Source: a virus (taxonomy: Duplodnaviria > Heunggongvirae > Uroviricota > Caudoviricetes). Taken from it: a stretch of 13,805 bases of DNA. The stretch covers positions 1 through 13,805 of the IMG/VR virus record IMGVR_UViG_2703718840_000009; one strand, 5' to 3'. The notes beneath the pieces were generated by a model. It did no database searches, was not told where the DNA came from, and saw nothing but the letters and a program-made list of their open reading frames with translations. A program made the translations under genes and the position numbers. Of this stretch, positions 2,925 to 12,483 are shown in pieces (within the stretch, counting starts at the first letter, position 1; every line of letters starts with the position of its first letter).

Positions 2925-3131
2925 TCAGTCAACCACCAGGGAATAATCCTTCATATTATTATCGTGCTTCACCAACGCTGCCTCAATTGCTCTGAATGCT
3001 TCCAGAGACACCTTATGTTCTATACATGCAATTACAACATCAGGGTAACTCATAGAAATGGTGCTATTAAGCATATTTTTTACACGAATCAGATCCACGG
3101 AGGGATCATCAGCAGATTGTTCTTTATTCAT
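2925..3131 (-). CDS. Hypothetical 68-aa protein of the lambda right arm
   Basis: ORF in a visibly AT-rich block at the position of a small ORF I recall near the lambda right end. Confidence 0.5.
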
Positions 3132-3293
3132 TTTGTCGCTCCATGCGCTTGCTCTTCATCTAGCGGTTAAAATATTACTTCAAATCTTTCTGTATGAAGA
3201 TTTGAGCACGTTGGCCTTACATACATCTGTCGGTTGTATTTCCCTCCAGAATGCCAGCAGGACCGCACTTTGTTAAGCAACCAATACTATTAA

Positions 3294-3827
3294 GTGAAAA
3301 CATTCCTAATATTTGACATAAATCATCAACAAAACACAAGGAGGTCAGACCAGATTGAAACGATAAAAACGATAATGCAAACTACGCGCCCTCGTATCAC
3401 ATGGAAGGTTTTACCAATGGCTCAGGTTGCCATTTTTAAAGAAATATTCGATCAAGTGCGAAAAGATTTAGACTGTGAATTGTTTTATTCTGAACTAAAA
3501 CGTCACAACGTCTCACATTATATTTACTATCTAGCCACAGATAATATTCACATCGTGTTAGAAAACGATAACACCGTGTTAATAAAAGGACTTAAAAAGG
3601 TTGTAAATGTTAAATTCTCAAGAAACACGCATCTTATAGAAACGTCCTATGATAGGTTGAAATCAAGAGAAATCACATTTCAGCAATACAGGGAAAATCT
3701 TGCTAAAGCAGGAGTTTTCCGATGGGTTACAAATATCCATGAACATAAAAGATATTACTATACCTTTGATAATTCATTACTATTTACTGAGAGCATTCAG
3801 AACACTACACAAATCTTTCCACGCTAA
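3294..3827 (+). CDS. Hypothetical 177-aa protein of the lambda right arm (true start may be an internal Met)
   Basis: Long ORF in the AT-rich block between cos and bor; an aggaggt RBS-like motif lies inside the 5' end, suggesting a later start. Confidence 0.5.
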
Positions 3828-4116: not shown

Positions 4117-4410
4117 ATGAAAAAAATGCTACTCGCTACTGCGCTGGCCCTGCTTATTACAGGATGTGCTCAACAGACGTTTACTGTTCAAAACAAACCG
4201 GCAGCAGTAGCACCAAAGGAAACCATCACCCATCATTTCTTCGTTTCTGGAATTGGGCAGAAGAAAACTGTCGATGCAGCCAAAATTTGTGGCGGCGCAG
4301 AAAATGTTGTTAAAACAGAAACCCAGCAAACATTCGTAAATGGATTGCTCGGTTTTATTACTTTAGGCATTTATACTCCGCTGGAAGCGCGTGTGTATTG
4401 CTCACAATAA
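4117..4410 (+). CDS. bor: Bor lipoprotein (serum-resistance, Iss-like)
   Basis: 97-aa ORF with signal peptide and lipobox (MKKMLLATALALLITGCAQQ), matching lambda Bor from memory. Opposite orientation to the lysis genes, as in lambda. Confidence 0.9.
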   Translation: MKKMLLATALALLITGCAQQTFTVQNKPAAVAPKETITHHFFVSGIGQKKTVDAAKICGGAENVVKTETQQTFVNGLLGFITLGIYTPLEARVYCSQ

Positions 4411-4441
4411 TTGCATGAGTTGCCCATCGATATGGGCAACT

Positions 4442-4903
4442 CTATCTGCACTGCTCATTAATATACTTCTGGGTTCCTTCCAGTTGTTTTTGCATAGTGA
4501 TCAGCCTCTCTCTGAGGGTGAAATAATCCCGTTCAGCGGTGTCTGCCAGTCGGGGGGAGGCTGCATTATCCACGCCGGAGGCGGTGGTGGCTTCACGCAC
4601 TGACTGACAGACTGCTTTGATGTGCAACCGACGACGACCAGCGGCAACATCATCACGCAGAGCATCATTTTCAGCTTTAGCATCAGCTAACTCCTTCGTG
4701 TATTTTGCATCGAGCGCAGCAACATCACGCTGACGCATCTGCATGTCAGTAATTGCCGCGTTCGCCAGCTTCAGTTCTCTGGCATTTTTGTCGCGCTGGG
4801 CTTTGTAGGTAATGGCGTTATCACGGTAATGATTAACAGCCCATGACAGGCAGACGATGATGCAGATAACCAGAGCGGAGATAATCGCGGTGACTCTGCT
4901 CAT
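4442..4903 (-). CDS. Rz: Spanin inner-membrane subunit Rz
   Basis: 153-aa ORF with N-terminal TM segment and coiled-coil body; matches lambda Rz from memory. Confidence 0.9.
4501..4683 (-). CDS. Rz1: Spanin outer-membrane lipoprotein Rz1, nested in the +1 frame of Rz
   Basis: 60-aa ORF inside Rz with lipobox (VVVGCTS) and a proline-rich stretch ([15 protein letters not shown]). Confidence 0.85.
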
Positions 4904-5376
4904 ACATCAATCTCTCTGACCGTTCCGCCCGCTTCTTTGAATTTTGCAATCAGGCTGTCAGCCTTATGCTCGAACTGACCATAACCAGCGCCCGGCAGTG
5001 AAGCCCAGATATTGCTGCAACGGTCGATTGCCTGACGGATATCACCACGATCAATCATAGGTAAAGCGCCACGCTCCTTAATCTGCTGCAATGCCACAGC
5101 GTCCTGACTTTTCGGAGAGAAGTCTTTCAGGCCAAGCTGCTTGCGGTAGGCATCCCACCAACGGGAAAGAAGCTGGTAGCGTCCGGCGCCTGTTGATTTG
5201 AGTTTTGGGTTTAGCGTGACAAGTTTGCGAGGGTGATCGGAGTAATCAGTGAATAGCTCTCCGCCTACAATGACGTCATAACCATGATTTCTGGTTTTCT
5301 GACGTCCGTTATCAGTTCCCTCCGACCACGCCAGCATATCGAGGAACGCCTTACGTTGATTATTGATTTCTACCAT
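4900..5376 (-). CDS. R: Endolysin R (lytic transglycosylase)
   Basis: 158-aa ORF ([35 protein letters not shown]...) matches lambda R from memory; overlaps the Rz start. Confidence 0.95.
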
Positions 5377-5683
5377 CTTCTACTCCGGCTTTTTTAGCAG
5401 CGAAGCGTTTGATAAGCGAACCAATCGAGTCAGTACCGATGTAGCCGATAAACACGCTCGTTATATAAGCGAGATTGCTACTTAGTCCGGCGAAGTCGAG
5501 AAGGTCACGAATGAACCAGGCGATAATGGCGCACATCGTTGCGTCGATTACTGTTTTTGTAAACGCACCGCCATTATATCTGCCGCGAAGGTACGCCATT
5601 GCAAACGCAAGGATTGCCCCGATGCCTTGTTCCTTTGCCGCGAGAATGGCGGCCAACAGGTCATGTTTTTCTGGCATCTTCAT
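5360..5683 (-). CDS. S: Holin/antiholin S (S107/S105 dual start)
   Basis: 107-aa ORF beginning [32 protein letters not shown] with the Met1-Lys2-Met3 dual-start motif and three TM segments. Confidence 0.95.
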
Positions 5684-6088
5684 GTCTTACCCCCAATAAG
5701 GGGATTTGCTCTATTTAATTAGGAATAAGGTCGATTACTGATAGAACAAATCCAGGCTACTGTGTTTAGTAATCAGATTTGTTCGTGACCGATATGCACG
5801 GGCAAAACGGCAGGAGGTTGTTAGCGCGACCTCCTGCCACCCGCTTTCACGAAGGTCATGTGTAAAAGGCCGCAGCGTAACTATTACTAATGAATTCAGG
5901 ACAGACAGTGGCTACGGCTCAGTTTGGGTTGTGCTGTTGCTGGGCGGCGATGACGCCTGTACGCATTTGGTGATCCGGTTCTGCTTCCGGTATTCGCTTA
6001 ATTCAGCACAACGGAAAGAGCACTGGCTAACCAGGCTCGCCGACTCTTCACGATTATCGACTCAATGCTCTTACCTGTTGTGCAGATA

Positions 6089-6145
6089 TAAAAAATCCCG
6101 AAACCGTTATGCAGGCTCTAACTATTACCTGCGAACTGTTTCGGG
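6089..6145 (-). terminator. tR' intrinsic terminator of the 6S transcript
   Basis: On the minus strand, cccgaaac ... gtttcggg stem followed by a U-run (reverse complement of plus-strand 6089-6145). Confidence 0.7.
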
Positions 6146-6282
6146 ATTGCATTTTGCAGACCTCTCTGCCTGCGATGGTTGGAGTTCCAGACGATACGTC
6201 GAAGTGACCAACTAGGCGGAATCGGTAGTAAGCGCCGCCTCTTTTCATCTCACTACCACAACGAGCGAATTAACCCATCGTT
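6089..6282 (-). ncRNA. Lambda 6S RNA (short pR' transcript terminated at tR')
   Basis: Interval between the inferred pR' start and tR'; the sequence matches the lambda pR'-tR' region from memory. The TSS position is approximate. Confidence 0.55.
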
Positions 6283-6320
6283 GAGTCAAATTTACCCAAT
6301 TTTATTCAATAAGTCAATAT
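6283..6320 (-). promoter_or_regulatory. Late promoter pR' with overlapping qut site
   Basis: Minus strand reads TTGACT (-35), 17-nt spacer, TAAATT (-10), as in lambda (ttgacttattgaataaaattgggtaaatttgactcaacgatgg). Confidence 0.65.
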
Positions 6321-6359
6321 CATGCCGTTAATATGTTACCATCCGTGGCAATCATGCTG

Positions 6360-6752
6360 CTAACGTGTGACCGCATTCAAAATGTTGTCTGCGATTGACT
6401 CTTCTTTGTGGCATTGCACCACCAGAGCGTCATACAGCGGCTTAACAGTGCGTGACCAGGTGGGTTGGGTAAGGTTTGGGATTAGCATCGTCACAGCGCG
6501 ATATGCTGCGCTTGCTGGCATCCTTGAATAGCCGACGCCTTTGCATCTTCCGCACTCTTTCTCGACAACTCTCCCCCACAGCTCTGTTTTGGCAATATCA
6601 ACCGCACGGCCTGTACCATGGCAATCTCTGCATCTTGCCCCCGGCGTCGCGGCACTACGGCAATAATCCGCATAAGCGAATGTTGCGAGCACTTGCAGTA
6701 CCTTTGCCTTAGTATTTCCTTCAAGCTTTGCCACACCACGGTATTTCCCCGA
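6360..6752 (-). pseudogene. Q: Antiterminator Q, C-terminal fragment only (~130 codons)
   Basis: C-terminus (SGKYRGVAKLEGNTKAKVLQ ... HKEESIADNILNAVTR) matches lambda Q. The ORF-track extension to 7019 is antisense to bet/exo, so the Q N-terminus is absent. Confidence 0.8.
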
Positions 6753-6948
6753 TAACGATGAAACCATGCAGGAGATTAACACTCTGCTGATCGCCCTGGA
6801 TAAAACATGGGATGACGACTTATTGCCGCTCTGTTCCCAGATATTTCGCCGCGACATTCGTGCATCGTCAGAACTGACACAGGCCGAAGCAGTGAAAGCT
6901 CTTGGATTCCTGAAACAAAAAGCCACTGAGCAGAAGGTGGCAGCATGA
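6748..6948 (+). pseudogene. bet: Bet single-strand annealing protein, C-terminal ~66-codon remnant
   Basis: Reads (PD)[64 protein letters not shown], the lambda Bet C-terminus; stop overlaps the exo start (ATGA). Confidence 0.8.
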
Positions 6949-7625
6949 CACCGGACATTATCCTGCAGCGTACCGGGATCGACGTGAGAGCTGTCGAACA
7001 GGGGGATGATGCATGGCACAAATTACGGCTCGGCGTCATCACCGCTTCAGAAGTTCACAACGTGATAGCAAAGCCCCGCTCAGGAAAGAAGTGGCCTGAC
7101 ATGAAAATGTCCTACTTCCACACCCTGCTTGCCGAGGTTTGCACCGGTGTGGCTCCGGAAGTTAACGCTAAAGCACTGGCCTGGGGAAAACAGTACGAGA
7201 ACGACGCCAGAACCCTGTTTGAGTTCACTTCCGGCGTGAATGTTATTGAATCCCCGATCATCTATCGCGACGAAAGTATGCGTACCGCCTGCTCTCCCGA
7301 TGGTTTATGCAGTGACGGCAATGGCCTTGAGCTGAAATGCCCGTTTACCTCCCGGGATTTCATGAAGTTCCGGCTCGGTGGTTTCGAGGCCATAAAATCG
7401 GCTTACATGGCCCAGGTGCAGTACAGCATGTGGGTGACACGAAAAGATGCCTGGTACTTTGCCAACTATGACCCACGTATGAAGCGTGAAGGACTGCATT
7501 ATGTCGTGGTTGAGCGGGATGAAAAGTACATGGCGAGTTTTGACGAGATGGTGCCGGAGTTCATCGAAAAAATGGACGAGGCACTGGCTGAAATTGGTTT
7601 TGTATTTGGGGAGCAATGGCGATGA
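6945..7625 (+). CDS. exo: Lambda exonuclease (Red alpha)
   Basis: 226-aa ORF ([40 protein letters not shown]...) matches lambda Exo from memory. Confidence 0.95.
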
Positions 7626-7804
7626 AGCATCCTCACGATAATATCCGGGTAGGTGCGATCACTTTCGTCTACTCCGTTACAAAGCGAGGCTGGGTATTTC
7701 CCGGCCTTTCTGTTATCAGAAATCCCCTGAAAGCACAGCGGCTGGCTGAGGAGATAAATAATAAACGGGGAGCTGTATGCACAAAGCATCTCCCGTTGAG
7801 TTAA
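7616..7804 (+). CDS. Small hypothetical protein (lambda orf60a-like); start may be the ATG at 7622
   Basis: Small ORF immediately after exo, overlapping its stop, as in the lambda pL operon. Confidence 0.6.
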
Positions 7805-7968
7805 GAACGAGTATCGAGATGGCACATAGCCTCGCTCAAATTGGAGTCAGGTTTGTGCCAATACCAGTAGAAACAGACGAAGAATTTCATACGTTAGCCG
7901 CATCCCTTTCACAAAAGCTGGAAATGATGGTGGCGAAAGCAGAAGCAGATGAGAGAGACCAGGTATGA
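7777..7968 (+). CDS. Small hypothetical protein (lambda orf63-like)
   Basis: 63-aa ORF overlapping the neighbouring ORFs, in the same order as lambda. Confidence 0.6.
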   Translation: MHKASPVELRTSIEMAHSLAQIGVRFVPIPVETDEEFHTLAASLSQKLEMMVAKAEADERDQV

Positions 7969-8044
7969 CAACCACTGAATGTATTTTTCTGGCAGCGGGC
8001 TTCATATTCTGTGTGCTTATGCTTGCCGACATGGGGCTTGTTCA

Positions 8045-8260
8045 ATGACACCTCAGCAAGAAAACGCCCTTCGCAGCATTGCCCGTCAGGCTAATTCTGA
8101 AATCAAAAAAGCCAGACAGCAGTTTCCGGATAAAAACGTCGATGACATTTGCCGTAGCGTACTGAAGAAGCACCGCGAAACGGTAACGCTGATGGGATTC
8201 ACACCGACTCATTTAAGCCTGGCAATCGGCATGTTAAACGGCGTCTTTAAGGAACGATGA
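8045..8260 (+). CDS. Small hypothetical protein (lambda orf61-region); ORF track extends it upstream to 7979
   Basis: Internal ATG at 8045 gives MTPQQENALRSIARQANSEIKKARQQFPDKNVDD...; no recognisable domain. Confidence 0.45.
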   Translation: MTPQQENALRSIARQANSEIKKARQQFPDKNVDDICRSVLKKHRETVTLMGFTPTHLSLAIGMLNGVFKER

Positions 8261-8358
8261 ACATGAAAAGCAAAATTATCAGGGAGCTACAGGCTCCTTT
8301 TTTATTGCTCGCATTTACCCCCAAGCGTATTAACCAACAATTCAGGGATTAATGGAAG

Positions 8359-8580
8359 ATGGCAGACATCATTGATTCAGCATCAGAAATTGAAGAATTA
8401 CAGCGCAACACAGCAATAAAAATGCGCCGCCTGAACCACCAGGCTGTATCTGCCACTCATTGTTGTGAGTGTGGCGATCCCATAGATGAGCTAAGACGCC
8501 TGGCCGTTCAGGGTTGTCGGACTTGTGCAAGTTGCCAGGAAGATCTGGAGCTTATCAGTAAACAGAGAGGTTCGAAGTGA
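8359..8580 (+). CDS. TraR/DksA-family C4 zinc-finger protein (lambda Orf73-like)
   Basis: 73-aa ORF with CxxC-(17)-CxxC (HCCECGDPIDELRRLAVQGCRTCASC), resembling F-plasmid TraR. Stop overlaps the next ORF start (GTGA). Confidence 0.8.
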   Translation: MADIIDSASEIEELQRNTAIKMRRLNHQAVSATHCCECGDPIDELRRLAVQGCRTCASCQEDLELISKQRGSK

Positions 8581-8990
8581 GCGTAATTCACTCTCAGGCA
8601 CTGCGTGAAGCGGCAGAGCAGGCAATGCCTGACAACTGGGGATTTGACGCGGACCTTTTCCATGAGCTGGTAACACCATCGATTGTGCTGACACTGCTGG
8701 ATGAACGGGAAAGAAACCAGCAATACATCAAACGCCGCGACCAGGAGAACGAGGATATTGCGCTAACGGTGGGGAAACTGCGTGTTGAGCTGGAGACAGC
8801 AAAAATCAAAACTCAACGAGCAGCGTGAGTAGAAGGTGTTATCTCGGATGGAAGTAAGCGTATTGCTGAACTGGAGGCCTGGGTTGAATACACAAGAGCT
8901 GCATACGTAAGAGCAAAAGACAAGGGAGATTTGATCAGAGTTATTACCCGCCAACCAACGGGATTTTACGCTTACGTACCATGTAATTAG
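8577..8990 (+). pseudogene. ea22: ea22-like ORF interrupted by an in-frame TGA at 8826-8828 (83 codons, stop, then 53 open codons)
   Basis: N-terminus MSVIHSQALREAAEQAMPDNWGFDADLFHELVTPSIVL resembles lambda Ea22 (from memory, uncertain). After the TGA the same frame reads VEGVISDGSKRIAELEAWVEYTRAAYVRAKDKGDLIRVITRQPTGFYAYVPCN to TAG at 8988-8990. Confidence 0.5.
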
Positions 8991-9126
8991 GAATCCTTGA
9001 AGTGGCAGCCTAACTGCGGATACACTGAAATGGCGATTTGGTAACATGTTTCGCACAAGGCTGTTACTACACTTAGAGATAATCAGCCATGATTAAACGC
9101 TTTGTAAAAAGTAAAAGGAAATTACA

Positions 9127-9741
9127 ATGAAAAAATCAATACTAATTTTAGGGCTTACGTTAATTGTCTCATCTCAAATACCATCGGCAATGGCAAAAAA
9201 TGAATCAAAACTATGGGTTGTTGTTGATCGAACGGAAAGACATACCTGCCCTTCAAGTAAATGTGGAGTGGCTGGGAAACTATTTTTCAGGGAAGGCGTA
9301 GATTTTCTAGAAAAAAAAGGTGAATGGGTTCGTATAACTGAGCCATATTCAGCCTCATGTGTTGGAGGGGAAAGCGAATATATTAAAGAAGGTAATAAAT
9401 CCTGCACAAGAAAAAATGGAATCGTTAATGGCAAGTTTTCAGAATGGGTTAAACTTAGTGATCTTAGCAGTGAAAGGCCATCAGATCCTGCTGAAAATGC
9501 GAGCGGAGATGATACTTTAATCAAAGGATCTGATGACTACCGTATATACAAAAAAGAGTTTTCTTCGGCAGCTAGGAAGTTAATAAATGAAGGGGTCTGC
9601 ACGGAAAGCGATTTTAAGGAAATCGGAGGGTGGATGGCATCAAGCAATAAGGGTGAAAACATCTATTTCACATATTGCGGAGGAATGACGTTGTCGAACA
9701 GAATATATCTAGACGTTAAAAGTGGAAAGACTTTTAGATAA
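9127..9741 (+). CDS. Hypothetical secreted protein with a possible bacterial SH3-like N-terminal domain (non-lambda)
   Basis: 204-aa ORF with RBS aagga ~8 nt upstream and a signal peptide (MKKSILILGLTLIVSSQIPSAMA). Visibly AT-rich, several Cys, followed by a terminator hairpin. Confidence 0.8.
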   Translation: MKKSILILGLTLIVSSQIPSAMAKNESKLWVVVDRTERHTCPSSKCGVAGKLFFREGVDFLEKKGEWVRITEPYSASCVGGESEYIKEGNKSCTRKNGIVNGKFSEWVKLSDLSSERPSDPAENASGDDTLIKGSDDYRIYKKEFSSAARKLINEGVCTESDFKEIGGWMASSNKGENIYFTYCGGMTLSNRIYLDVKSGKTFR

Positions 9742-9812
9742 TATGATATTACCAATGACAGCATTAATTTAATGCCTCCATAGAATTATCTCCAGGAAGT
9801 AAGTATAAGAAA

Positions 9813-9850
9813 AGCCCGCACAATGAGCTGCTGCGGGCTTTGTGTTATTC
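9813..9850 (+). terminator. Putative intrinsic terminator after the secreted-protein gene
   Basis: Stem agcccgca / tgcgggct with ~11-nt loop, followed by a T-rich tract (ttgtgttatt). Confidence 0.55.
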
Positions 9851-10034
9851 GCCATATTTTATGAAGCAAATACGACACTATAGATAATTAAGCGTTACTG
9901 GTTGTCGATTCCTCACTCATTCCTGCTGATGGCTGTCTTCTTGTATGTGCCATTGAAGGGTAATATCGCGTAAAAAGATACCGGAAGTATCCGCGCCGCC
10001 ATGATTGTCTTTCTCCTGATGCAGGAAAAGCAGA

Positions 10035-10373
10035 ATGACTAGATCAGCAGCAGAGCGCAAAGCCGATCAGAGAGCCAAGCAAGCATCATCCGGTATGCGT
10101 AAGCTGGAGCTTGTACTTGATGCTCAGGAAATTGAAATGCTGGAGCGTAACTGAGCCACGCGCCGCTTCAGGCGTGCGCCTTACGAGTTTGGTGAGTACA
10201 TAGCATTACTGAGCCGCCAGGATGATGCACGTGTGCGCTGGCGTATAAAATCGATTAGCAGAAAACGTTGCCGTAAGTGCGGCGAGAGAGTTCCTGTTAA
10301 TTCATGCCCGTGTAATGGTGACTCACAATACTGGGTGACCAAAGGCTGGCACGAAACAAAATTAATGATATAA
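10035..10373 (+). pseudogene. Zinc-ribbon small ORF (possible Ea8.5 counterpart) split by an in-frame TGA at 10152-10154
   Basis: ATG at 10035 with RBS aggaaaag gives 39 aa (MTRSAAERKADQRAKQASSGMRKLELVLDAQEIEMLERN). After the TGA the same frame stays open to TAA at 10371-10373 and contains CRKCGERVPVNSCPC; a GTG at 10233 could restart it. Confidence 0.4.
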
Positions 10374-10401
10374 ATCTCTGTGACATGTCACGGAGGCGGC
10401 A

Positions 10402-10830
10402 ATGAAATTAGACCAGCAATATCTAAAAGATCTACTTATCGCATTCGAAAAAACTTATGGCCCTGACACGATGCTTAGTGAACTAGAGGATAATGGCTTT
10501 AATAGATATGACCAAAATTTTATTTTCCATATGCGATTATTATGTGACTACGAATTAATAGTTAGGGTTGATGGAAAACCAGGGTTCGGTCATATAATGT
10601 CCAACGAGTTAGGGGAAGGTGTTGAATATAGTTGGATCGAAGTACCACTGAGGTTGACAGCAAGAGGGCATGATTTTATTGCTGACTTACGTCAAAAGGA
10701 GGTCTGGCAAGCTATAAAAACAAACTTTAAGGATGAGGGAATTAGTACTCTTATGAGTGTTTCAAAATCACTAGCAAAAGTCTTTGCAAGGAAAAAAATA
10801 AAAGATATTACAGGAATAGATATTGAATAA
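10402..10830 (+). CDS. Hypothetical 142-aa protein, no signal peptide (non-lambda)
   Basis: Strong RBS ggagg 5 nt upstream; visibly AT-rich; preceded by a 12-bp palindrome and followed by a terminator hairpin at about 10877-10900. Confidence 0.75.
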   Translation: MKLDQQYLKDLLIAFEKTYGPDTMLSELEDNGFNRYDQNFIFHMRLLCDYELIVRVDGKPGFGHIMSNELGEGVEYSWIEVPLRLTARGHDFIADLRQKEVWQAIKTNFKDEGISTLMSVSKSLAKVFARKKIKDITGIDIE

Positions 10831-10876
10831 TTCTTAGCATCAAGCAACTACTGCCTTTGGTGAAAATTATATCTGA

Positions 10877-10900
10877 ACTCGCTACGGCGAGTTTTGTTTT
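10877..10900 (+). terminator. Putative intrinsic terminator after the 142-aa gene
   Basis: 6-bp stem actcgc / gcgagt with loop tacg, followed by tttgtttt. Confidence 0.55.
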
Positions 10901-10913
10901 ACGGAGATGATAA

Positions 10914-11081
10914 ATGCACTTCAGAGTCACTGGTGAATGGAATGGAGAACCATTCAACAGAGTTATCTAAGCAGAGAACATCAATGACTGCTATGACAAC
11001 TGGATGATATGGGCGCAGATAGCACATGCAGACATAACCAATATTCGAATTGAAGAACTGAAAGAACACCAAGCCGCCTGA
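10914..11081 (+). pseudogene. Small ORF upstream of xis (lambda orf55-position) interrupted by an in-frame TAA at 10968-10970
   Basis: Reads MHFRVTGEWNGEPFNRVI, TAA, then AENINDCYDNWMIWAQIAHADITNIRIEELKEHQAA to TGA at 11079-11081. The 168-nt span fits the 55-codon lambda ORF I recall at this position. Confidence 0.4.
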
Positions 11082-11120
11082 TGGCGGTTTTTTCTTGCGT
11101 GTAATTGCGGAGACTTTGCG

Positions 11121-11339
11121 ATGTACTTGACACTTCAGGAGTGGAACGCTCGCCAGCGACGCCCAAGAAGCCTTGAAACAGTTCGTCGATGGGTGCGCGA
11201 ATGCAGGATATTCCCTCCTCCGGTTAAGGATGGAAGAGAGTATCTGTTCCACGAATCAGCGGTAAAGGTTGACTTAAATCGACCAGTAACAGGTAGCCTT
11301 TTGAAGAGGATCAGAAATGGGAAGAAGGCGAAGTCATGA
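11121..11339 (+). CDS. xis: Excisionase Xis
   Basis: 72-aa ORF (MYLTLQEWNARQRRPRSLETVRRWVRECRIFPPPVKDGREYLFHESAVKVDLN...) matches lambda Xis; 3' end overlaps int. Confidence 0.95.
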   Translation: MYLTLQEWNARQRRPRSLETVRRWVRECRIFPPPVKDGREYLFHESAVKVDLNRPVTGSLLKRIRNGKKAKS

Positions 11340-12387
11340 GCGCCGGGATTTACCCCCTAACCTTTATATAAGAAACAATGGATATTACTGCTACAGGGAC
11401 CCAAGGACGGGTAAAGAGTTTGGATTAGGCAGAGACAGGCGAATCGCAATCACTGAAGCTATACAGGCCAACATTGAGTTATTTTCAGGACACAAACACA
11501 AGCCTCTGACAGCGAGAATCAACAGTGATAATTCCGTTACGTTACATTCATGGCTTGATCGCTACGAAAAAATCCTGGCCAGCAGAGGAATCAAGCAGAA
11601 GACACTCATAAATTACATGAGCAAAATTAAAGCAATAAGGAGGGGTCTGCCTGATGCTCCACTTGAAGACATCACCACAAAAGAAATTGCGGCAATGCTC
11701 AATGGATACATAGACGAGGGCAAGGCGGCGTCAGCCAAGTTAATCAGATCAACACTGAGCGATGCATTCCGAGAGGCAATAGCTGAAGGCCATATAACAA
11801 CAAACCCTGTCGCTGCCACTCGCGCAGCAAAATCAGAGGTAAGGAGATCAAGACTTACGGCTGACGAATACCTGAAAATTTATCAAGCAGCAGAATCATC
11901 ACCATGTTGGCTCAGACTTGCAATGGAACTGGCTGTTGTTACCGGGCAACGAGTTGGTGATTTATGCGAAATGAAGTGGTCTGATATCGTAGATGGATAT
12001 CTTTATGTCGAGCAAAGCAAAACAGGCGTAAAAATTGCCATCCCAACAGCATTGCATGTTGATGCTCTCGGAATATCAATGAAGGAAACACTTGATAAAT
12101 GCAAAGAGATTCTTGGCGGAGAAACCATAATTGCATCTACTCGTCGCGAACCGCTTTCATCCGGCACAGTATCAAGGTATTTTATGCGCGCACGAAAAGC
12201 ATCAGGTCTTTCCTTCGAAGGGGATCCGCCTACCTTTCACGAGTTGCGCAGTTTGTCTGCAAGACTCTATGAGAAGCAGATAAGCGATAAGTTTGCTCAA
12301 CATCTTCTCGGGCATAAGTCGGACACCATGGCATCACAGTATCGTGATGACAGAGGCAGGGAGTGGGACAAAATTGAAATCAAATAA
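11317..12387 (+). CDS. int: Integrase Int (tyrosine recombinase)
   Basis: 356-aa ORF (MGRRRSHERRDLPPNLYIRNNGYYCYRDPRTGKEFGLGRDRRIAITEAIQ...) matches lambda Int over its full length. Confidence 0.97.
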   Translation: MGRRRSHERRDLPPNLYIRNNGYYCYRDPRTGKEFGLGRDRRIAITEAIQANIELFSGHKHKPLTARINSDNSVTLHSWLDRYEKILASRGIKQKTLINYMSKIKAIRRGLPDAPLEDITTKEIAAMLNGYIDEGKAASAKLIRSTLSDAFREAIAEGHITTNPVAATRAAKSEVRRSRLTADEYLKIYQAAESSPCWLRLAMELAVVTGQRVGDLCEMKWSDIVDGYLYVEQSKTGVKIAIPTALHVDALGISMKETLDKCKEILGGETIIASTRREPLSSGTVSRYFMRARKASGLSFEGDPPTFHELRSLSARLYEKQISDKFAQHLLGHKSDTMASQYRDDRGREWDKIEIK

Positions 12388-12483
12388 TGATTTTATTTTG
12401 ACTGATAGTGACCTGTTCGTTGCAACAAATTGATAAGCAATGCTTTTTTATAATGCCAACTTAGTATAAAAAAGCAGGCTTCA
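12388..12483. other. attL: attL junction: phage P' arm with Int arm-type sites, 15-bp core (about 12461-12475), then bacterial arm
   Basis: Reverse complement reads tgaagcct-GCTTTTTTATACTAA-gttggcattataaaaaagcattgcttatcaatttgttgcaacgaacaggtcactatcagtcaaaataaaatca: bacterial-side sequence, lambda core, then lambda P' arm. Confidence 0.88.

Follow-up and report, generated by a model that had tools for sequence, protein, structure and literature searches.

The segment at 10035-10373 (plus strand) of the window, i.e. the whole stretch of 13,805 nucleotides analysed here, very probably (at about 93%) represents a nonsense pseudogene derived from one accessory gene, 112 codons long, of temperate enterobacterial phages; this gene belongs to PHROG 536, likely encodes a DNA-binding regulator and lies here in a decaying prophage. 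The pseudogene status of the locus is already known, the identical sequence being flagged in RefSeq as a "hypothetical protein" with an "internal stop" and as a pseudogene. It is an ordinary, already annotated pseudogene of a known, uncharacterised phage family, and carries little weight as a discovery.

A PHROG 536 gene with an internal stop codon

Translation of 10035-10373 gives MTRSAAERKADQRAKQASSGMRKLELVLDAQEIEMLERN (39 codons, opening with the ATG at 10035), the TGA at 10152-10154, ATRRFRRAPYEFGEYIALLSRQDDARVRWRIKSISRKRCRKCGERVPVNSCPCNGDSQYWVTKGWHETKLMI (72 open codons) and a final TAA. A Shine-Dalgarno-like AGGA can be read on the plus strand at 10023-10026, 8 nt 5' of the ATG. Translation therefore confirms what the sequence-only reading had described, a well-initiated 39-codon ORF ending at TGA and followed by 72 more in-frame codons. 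The CxxC...CxC motif that it reported is also present, as CRKC (codons 79-82) and CPC (codons 91-93) at 10269-10313 (plus strand). The open run after the TGA is rare by chance: it was obtained in 2% of tail shuffles, and, over the six frames of the whole window, 5% of stops are followed by a run as long as 72 codons. For the existence of one gene, we regard homology across the stop as the decisive evidence.

When the internal stop is read as Cys, residues 1-111 match positions 2-114 of the 115 in the PHROG 536 ("transcriptional regulator") profile with an E-value of 5e-47. The product thus belongs to this family over its full length, and the concern that the continuous frame might be similar to no known protein is removed. 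A homologue search of 5.8 billion proteins gave 422 clusters, and the conservation figures for close homologues come from the 120 that were listed. The protein is uninterrupted and exactly 112 aa long in 104 of these 120, and all 120 have Cys at codon 40. DNA alignment showed that phiV10 gp55 and the corresponding frame of phage Chlobot are uninterrupted 112-codon ORFs with TGT where the window has TGA. The phiV10 protein is 86% identical to the window product, with equal length and equal Cys pattern, and an E. coli prophage protein (P0001) is 94% identical. Compared with intact PHROG 536 members, the window copy combines a nonsense codon at Cys40 with K3R, G80R and C99Y; it keeps the family cysteines C79, C82, C91 and C93 and has Tyr in place of C99. 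Since most listed homologues are intact while the frame of about 112 codons expected of PHROG 536 is broken here by TGA at codon 40, we consider the window copy to be a pseudogene. Of the alternatives offered by the sequence-only reading, these comparisons favour the interrupted gene, and the alignments indicate that both halves are parts of one gene.

The other alternative was that of two small genes that happen to share a frame. They would be independent, one encoding an N-terminal peptide of 39 residues and the other, from GTG 10233, a Cys-rich peptide of 46 residues. Both ORFs are in the ORF listing, and an AGGA lies 10 nt upstream of GTG 10233. However, the AGGA-N10-GTG stretch encodes the near-invariant QDDARV and is found in intact genes too. 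Proteins of both lengths have been called in public data, namely P0201 (39 aa), whose last residue is the same, and P0154 (46 aa), and the Chlobot record labels its 46-aa ORF "transcriptional regulator". Chlobot's own frame, in contrast, is uninterrupted over 112 codons, which makes its 46-aa call an annotation artefact. PHROG 34005, a 40-position profile, covers residues 1-40 of the window product, as could be expected of a separate N-terminal gene, but most listed homologues are single 112-aa proteins and no homologue set with two conserved genes having their own starts was found. The break is also located within a helix that is predicted with confidence, in a domain predicted to be compact. 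Finally, other truncated relatives in public data end elsewhere, through different, independent lesions, as is typical of a dispensable accessory gene. The two-gene reading is largely refuted already, and we consider it very unlikely.

Origin of the stop codon and decay of the copy

As Cys40 is found in all listed homologues and is encoded by TGT in the closest intact copies, the TGA at 10152-10154 (plus strand) is, from the DNA alignment with Chlobot and phiV10, a nonsense mutation of TGT through a T-to-A change at 10154. Alleles were counted with exact 31-mers ending just past the variable base. Among 5426 complete E. coli genomes, 29 had the TGA allele and 341 the TGT allele. One more TGA carrier, the thirtieth, is strain PSS-13, which the 31-mer overlooked because of a synonymous SNP inside it. 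In IMG/VR, there are 7 TGA contigs and at least 120 TGT contigs, and 107 of the 115 readable TGT copies are intact. All TGA copies carry one haplotype (Arg80, Tyr99) and are syntenic with the window, at 97-99.96% identity. The shared haplotype and synteny establish a single origin of the TGA and rule out a sequencing error. An error of sequencing or assembly in an intact gene would require a single base only, but at least 30 complete genomes, assembled independently, share this base with the 7 IMG/VR contigs, so that this explanation is hardly credible.

The haplotype carries other substitutions. Codon 80 encodes Arg in the window and Gly in 94% of homologues. TAC (Tyr99) at 10329-10331 (plus strand), due to a G-to-A change at 10330 relative to Chlobot, stands in place of a near-invariant Cys that is found in 98% of close homologues and in at least 90% of a more diverse set; C99Y has probably cost the protein a zinc ligand. 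Arg80 and Tyr99 are also found together in intact TGT form (protein P0004 and one IMG/VR locus), which suggests that G80R and C99Y are probably older than the stop. K3R (AGA at 10041-10043, plus strand; Lys in 96% of homologues) is found in the window and in copy L014, and would have arisen after the TGA since Lys is retained in other TGA copies. Decay after the stop is also visible elsewhere, with R85K in copy L018 and a 1-bp deletion in codon 31 of copy L019. Altogether, the window product deviates at 8 positions that are conserved in at least 90% of homologues. The locus provides a clean example of stepwise decay, with a missense change at a likely ligand, a nonsense mutation, and further missense and frameshift changes, documented in about 37 public sequences.

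UGA aligned with Cys is a hallmark of selenoprotein genes, and E. coli possesses the Sec machinery. Such an in-frame UGA opposite a Cys codon invariant in the 120 listed close homologues is what we have here. Either the UGA might be decoded as selenocysteine, in a Sec/Cys pairing with the homologues, or it might be bypassed by read-through; a full-length protein would result in both cases. However, Cys40 is not conserved in distant family members, where R, A, T or M is found, which also argues against a catalytic or metal-binding role for this residue. The TGA haplotype has lost Cys99 as well, and one TGA copy is frameshifted. More generally, the pattern is not that of purifying selection downstream of the UGA, as C99Y and G80R are on the haplotype, a frameshift has occurred once and the window has K3R. 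Given the variability of Cys40 and these further lesions, recoding appears highly improbable.

A SECIS-like element was considered but rejected for reasons of geometry and stability, and because the structures are not specific to the TGA allele. Counting from the U of UGA, a mini-hairpin of 4 bp (AGGC-GUGC-GCCU) spans nt 19-30 and has G and U at loop positions 23/24, and in this is like the SECIS of E. coli fdhF, whose loop lies near nt 22 with G/U at positions 23/24. But this hairpin has 4 pairs only and competes with a stronger one; moreover, its sequence is identical in the TGT homologue of Chlobot and pairs equally in phiV10, and it is common to TGT alleles because it encodes a conserved Arg-Ala-Pro. 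The dominant hairpin (CGCGCC/GGCGUG, loop GCUUCA) has a loop starting at nt 14, not at about 22, and no bulged U. Folding of the 60 nt starting at the UGA is no more stable than that of shuffled sequence (z = -0.20), and an Rfam scan of 9700-11200 at E <= 10 gave chance-level matches only, far below gathering scores. The TGA is followed by G, which is not known as a notably leaky context. Decoding at low efficiency, as selenocysteine via the weak fdhF-like mini-hairpin or by near-cognate read-through, is to our mind more improbable still. If true, the prophage would still make a little of the full-length regulator, and would contain the first phage-borne Sec/Cys pair in E. coli.

The intact protein and its family

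A profile search of 1.84 billion cluster representatives returned only 178 clusters, indicating that the PHROG 536-type family is small. AlphaFold prediction of the intact relative P0001 on an alignment of 57 diverse members gave a model with pLDDT 91.0 and pTM 0.68. It supersedes an earlier run with 34 close homologues (pLDDT 64.8), from which Foldseek matches were meaningless. The model consists of a helix (5-19), an extended segment (22-28), two further helices (30-43 and 52-74), a Cys-rich loop region and a last helix (100-108). The 39 codons before the stop (10035-10151, plus strand) correspond to the first helix, which is basic, the extended segment and two thirds of helix 30-43, within which codon 40 lies. 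The 72 codons after the stop and the TAA (10155-10373, plus strand) correspond to the rest of that helix, helix 52-74, the Cys-rich module and the C-terminal helix, and are no longer translated from the gene's own start.

We propose with moderate confidence, on the basis of this model, that the intact protein would associate a ribbon-helix-helix-like DNA-binding unit (residues about 20-74) with a C-terminal Cys-rich zinc module. The N-terminal basic helix and a role as small DNA-binding regulator are likewise predicted. Ribbon-helix-helix (CopG/Arc/MetJ) DNA-binding proteins include the antitoxins TacA, KacA and ParD, as well as NikR and the Arc repressor. None of the curated ribbon-helix-helix models in Pfam and NCBIfam was matched: Pfam had no match for any of the 57 members, and NCBIfam gave nothing above cut-off, with YbfE as sole signal (16.5 bits versus a cut-off of 62). 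A PDB sequence search of the family gave no significant match. The zinc ribbon announced by the sequence-only reading holds in part. Its Cys motif is real, C79 and C82 being invariant among the 57 members, but the strict label is only putative. Features that might belong to a Cys4 module are found in this set, namely the invariant CxxC, a second Cys pair region, and C99, conserved like P87 and G95 in at least 90%; the window lacks C99.

The loss of the gene may be pictured as follows. G80R and C99Y would have been acquired first in the prophage lineage, the latter at the expense of a near-invariant cysteine, probably one of the zinc ligands, and a later T-to-A change would have turned the TGT of Cys40 into TGA. 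Translation from the native start would then stop at 39 residues, midway through the first helix of the predicted ribbon-helix-helix unit. Lacking both the second helix, which the dimer core requires, and the whole zinc module, the 39-residue product would almost certainly be inactive. As the gene is located in the dispensable exo-xis region, its loss would be tolerated and the copy left to drift.

Homologues are found in the hosts Escherichia, Salmonella, Citrobacter, Klebsiella, Raoultella, Enterobacter and Edwardsiella, and phage relatives reach Yersinia, Pectobacterium, Pantoea and Aeromonas phages. Listed PHROG 536 relatives include phiV10 gp55 (YP_512310), the epsilon15 homologue, TL-2011b, Pectobacterium phage ZF40 and the Yersinia vB_YenM phages. 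PHROG 536-type genes sit variously in the exo-xis region, in the nin region and upstream of terminase. We found no experimental work on any PHROG 536 member, for which "transcriptional regulator" is a database label only, and no description of this family in the exo-xis literature. In the vB_EcoP_ZX5 paper, other ORFs are concerned, and phi24B gp05 is a different, winged-helix protein according to the relevant passage of PMC8614690. Members of the parent family occur widely among temperate enterobacterial phages; Pfam offers no model for them, and some phage annotations, such as that of Chlobot, split or mis-call the gene. PHROG 34005 appears to be built from N-terminal fragments of PHROG 536-type genes. 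In phage Chlobot (PP925838), the intact 112-codon ORF at 3136-3474 is left unannotated, and 2996-3474 is instead called as an out-of-frame 105-codon "UmuD-like protein" and a 46-codon "transcriptional regulator", which is probably a mis-annotation.

The prophage and the neighbouring genes

The window covers the right end of a lambdoid prophage that sits at the lambda attachment site of E. coli, with xis (11121-11339), int (11317-12387) and the host gene ybhC beyond. It is collinear with lambda at 6753-8875 (bet/exo to ea22) and 10866-12475 (orf55-xis-int), and the segment 8875-10866 stands in for the 3' end of lambda ea22, encoding its C-terminus, and for ea8.5. The minus-strand lysis genes (4442-5683) are located about 1 kb from bet/exo (6753 onward), and no immunity, replication or nin region is found between them (about 4400-6950 of the window). 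This points to a large internal deletion and hence to a cryptic, defective prophage. A different, even larger deletion exists in the same prophage in strain LZHX12. Another TGA carrier, the circular 43,337-bp record NZ_CP174001.1 (E. coli SZQ1 "plasmid pOHT76-1_1"), although deposited as a plasmid, resembles a near-complete lambdoid phage, with tail, lysis, Q, replication O/P, gam-bet-exo and int-xis genes, and may be an excised or circularised prophage.

Upstream of the pseudogene, a truncated Ead/Ea22-like ORF of 83 aa (8577-8828, plus strand; PF13935 positions 2-110 of 139) marks the left boundary of the replacing segment, and its equivalents in related genomes are annotated in RefSeq as "incomplete, missing C-terminus". 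It is followed by a 204-residue ORF (9127-9741, plus strand) with a signal-peptide-like N-terminus, MKKSILILGLTLIVSSQIPSAMA, for which Pfam and PADLOC gave no match. After this ORF come a GC-rich inverted repeat, GCCCGCA...TGCGGGC, and TTTGTGTT (9815-9845), and the arrangement resembles a self-contained moron in the exo-xis region. Directly 5' of the ribosome-binding site of the pseudogene lies a start-less umuD-like remnant (9895-10030, plus strand), read as LLVVDSSLIPADGCLLVCAIEG, a stop and YRVKRY..., whose DNA shares 82-89% identity with the umuD-like genes found in P1/D6-like phages and which reads TAA opposite a GAA in Chlobot.

On the other side, an intact DUF2513 gene (10402-10830) separates the pseudogene from a homologue of orf55 (lambdap35) at 10914-11081 (plus strand). 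The latter has TAA for the GAA of Glu19 and is flagged "internal stop" in RefSeq; the rest agrees with the lambda protein at about 96% identity. As orf55 is intact beside the TGA allele on the SZQ1 record, the two nonsense mutations differ in age. The locus had been presented as the second of three consecutive interrupted ORFs, a description that holds only in part. RefSeq does report internal stops here and in orf55, but these two are not consecutive, having the DUF2513 gene between them, and the upstream frame is the start-less umuD-like remnant. A toxin-antitoxin or defence module formed with DUF2513 was also considered and rejected, given that intact homologues have other genes around them, being found in the nin region of Salmonella prophages and directly upstream of terminase in Klebsiella, and that PADLOC gave no hits. 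Of the 84 differences between the window and Chlobot over 5.6 kb, 43 fall in 9897-11034, and the neighbouring lesions fit a decaying region. Two terminator-like hairpins with T-runs (10875-10894 and 11071-11090, plus strand) flank the orf55 pseudogene upstream of xis, and 8900-11200 contains 6 terminator-like sites versus 1.9 expected from shuffles.

The sequence-only reading had called the gene "Ea8.5-type". Ea8.5 and the window gene do share their place in the exo-xis region, with ea22 on one side and orf55/xis on the other, and Ea8.5 is likewise a small, Cys-containing, putative zinc and DNA-binding protein. It has a hybrid homeodomain/zinc-finger fold in lambda (PDB 2M7A/2M7B), in the terms of a passage of PMC8614690 citing Kwan et al. 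2013. Yet BLASTP against lambda Ea8.5 gave no alignment at E <= 100, hhalign returned a probability of 0.16%, and the solved Ea8.5-family structures 2m7a and 2m7b were not among the fold matches. Kinship with Ea8.5 is absent in sequence and in fold, and the genome slot alone is common to both. Set beside other genes that nonsense mutations have inactivated in the cryptic lambdoid prophages of E. coli, the window locus has nothing distinctive: the deleted prophage, the inactivated neighbours and the RefSeq "internal stop" are all alike.
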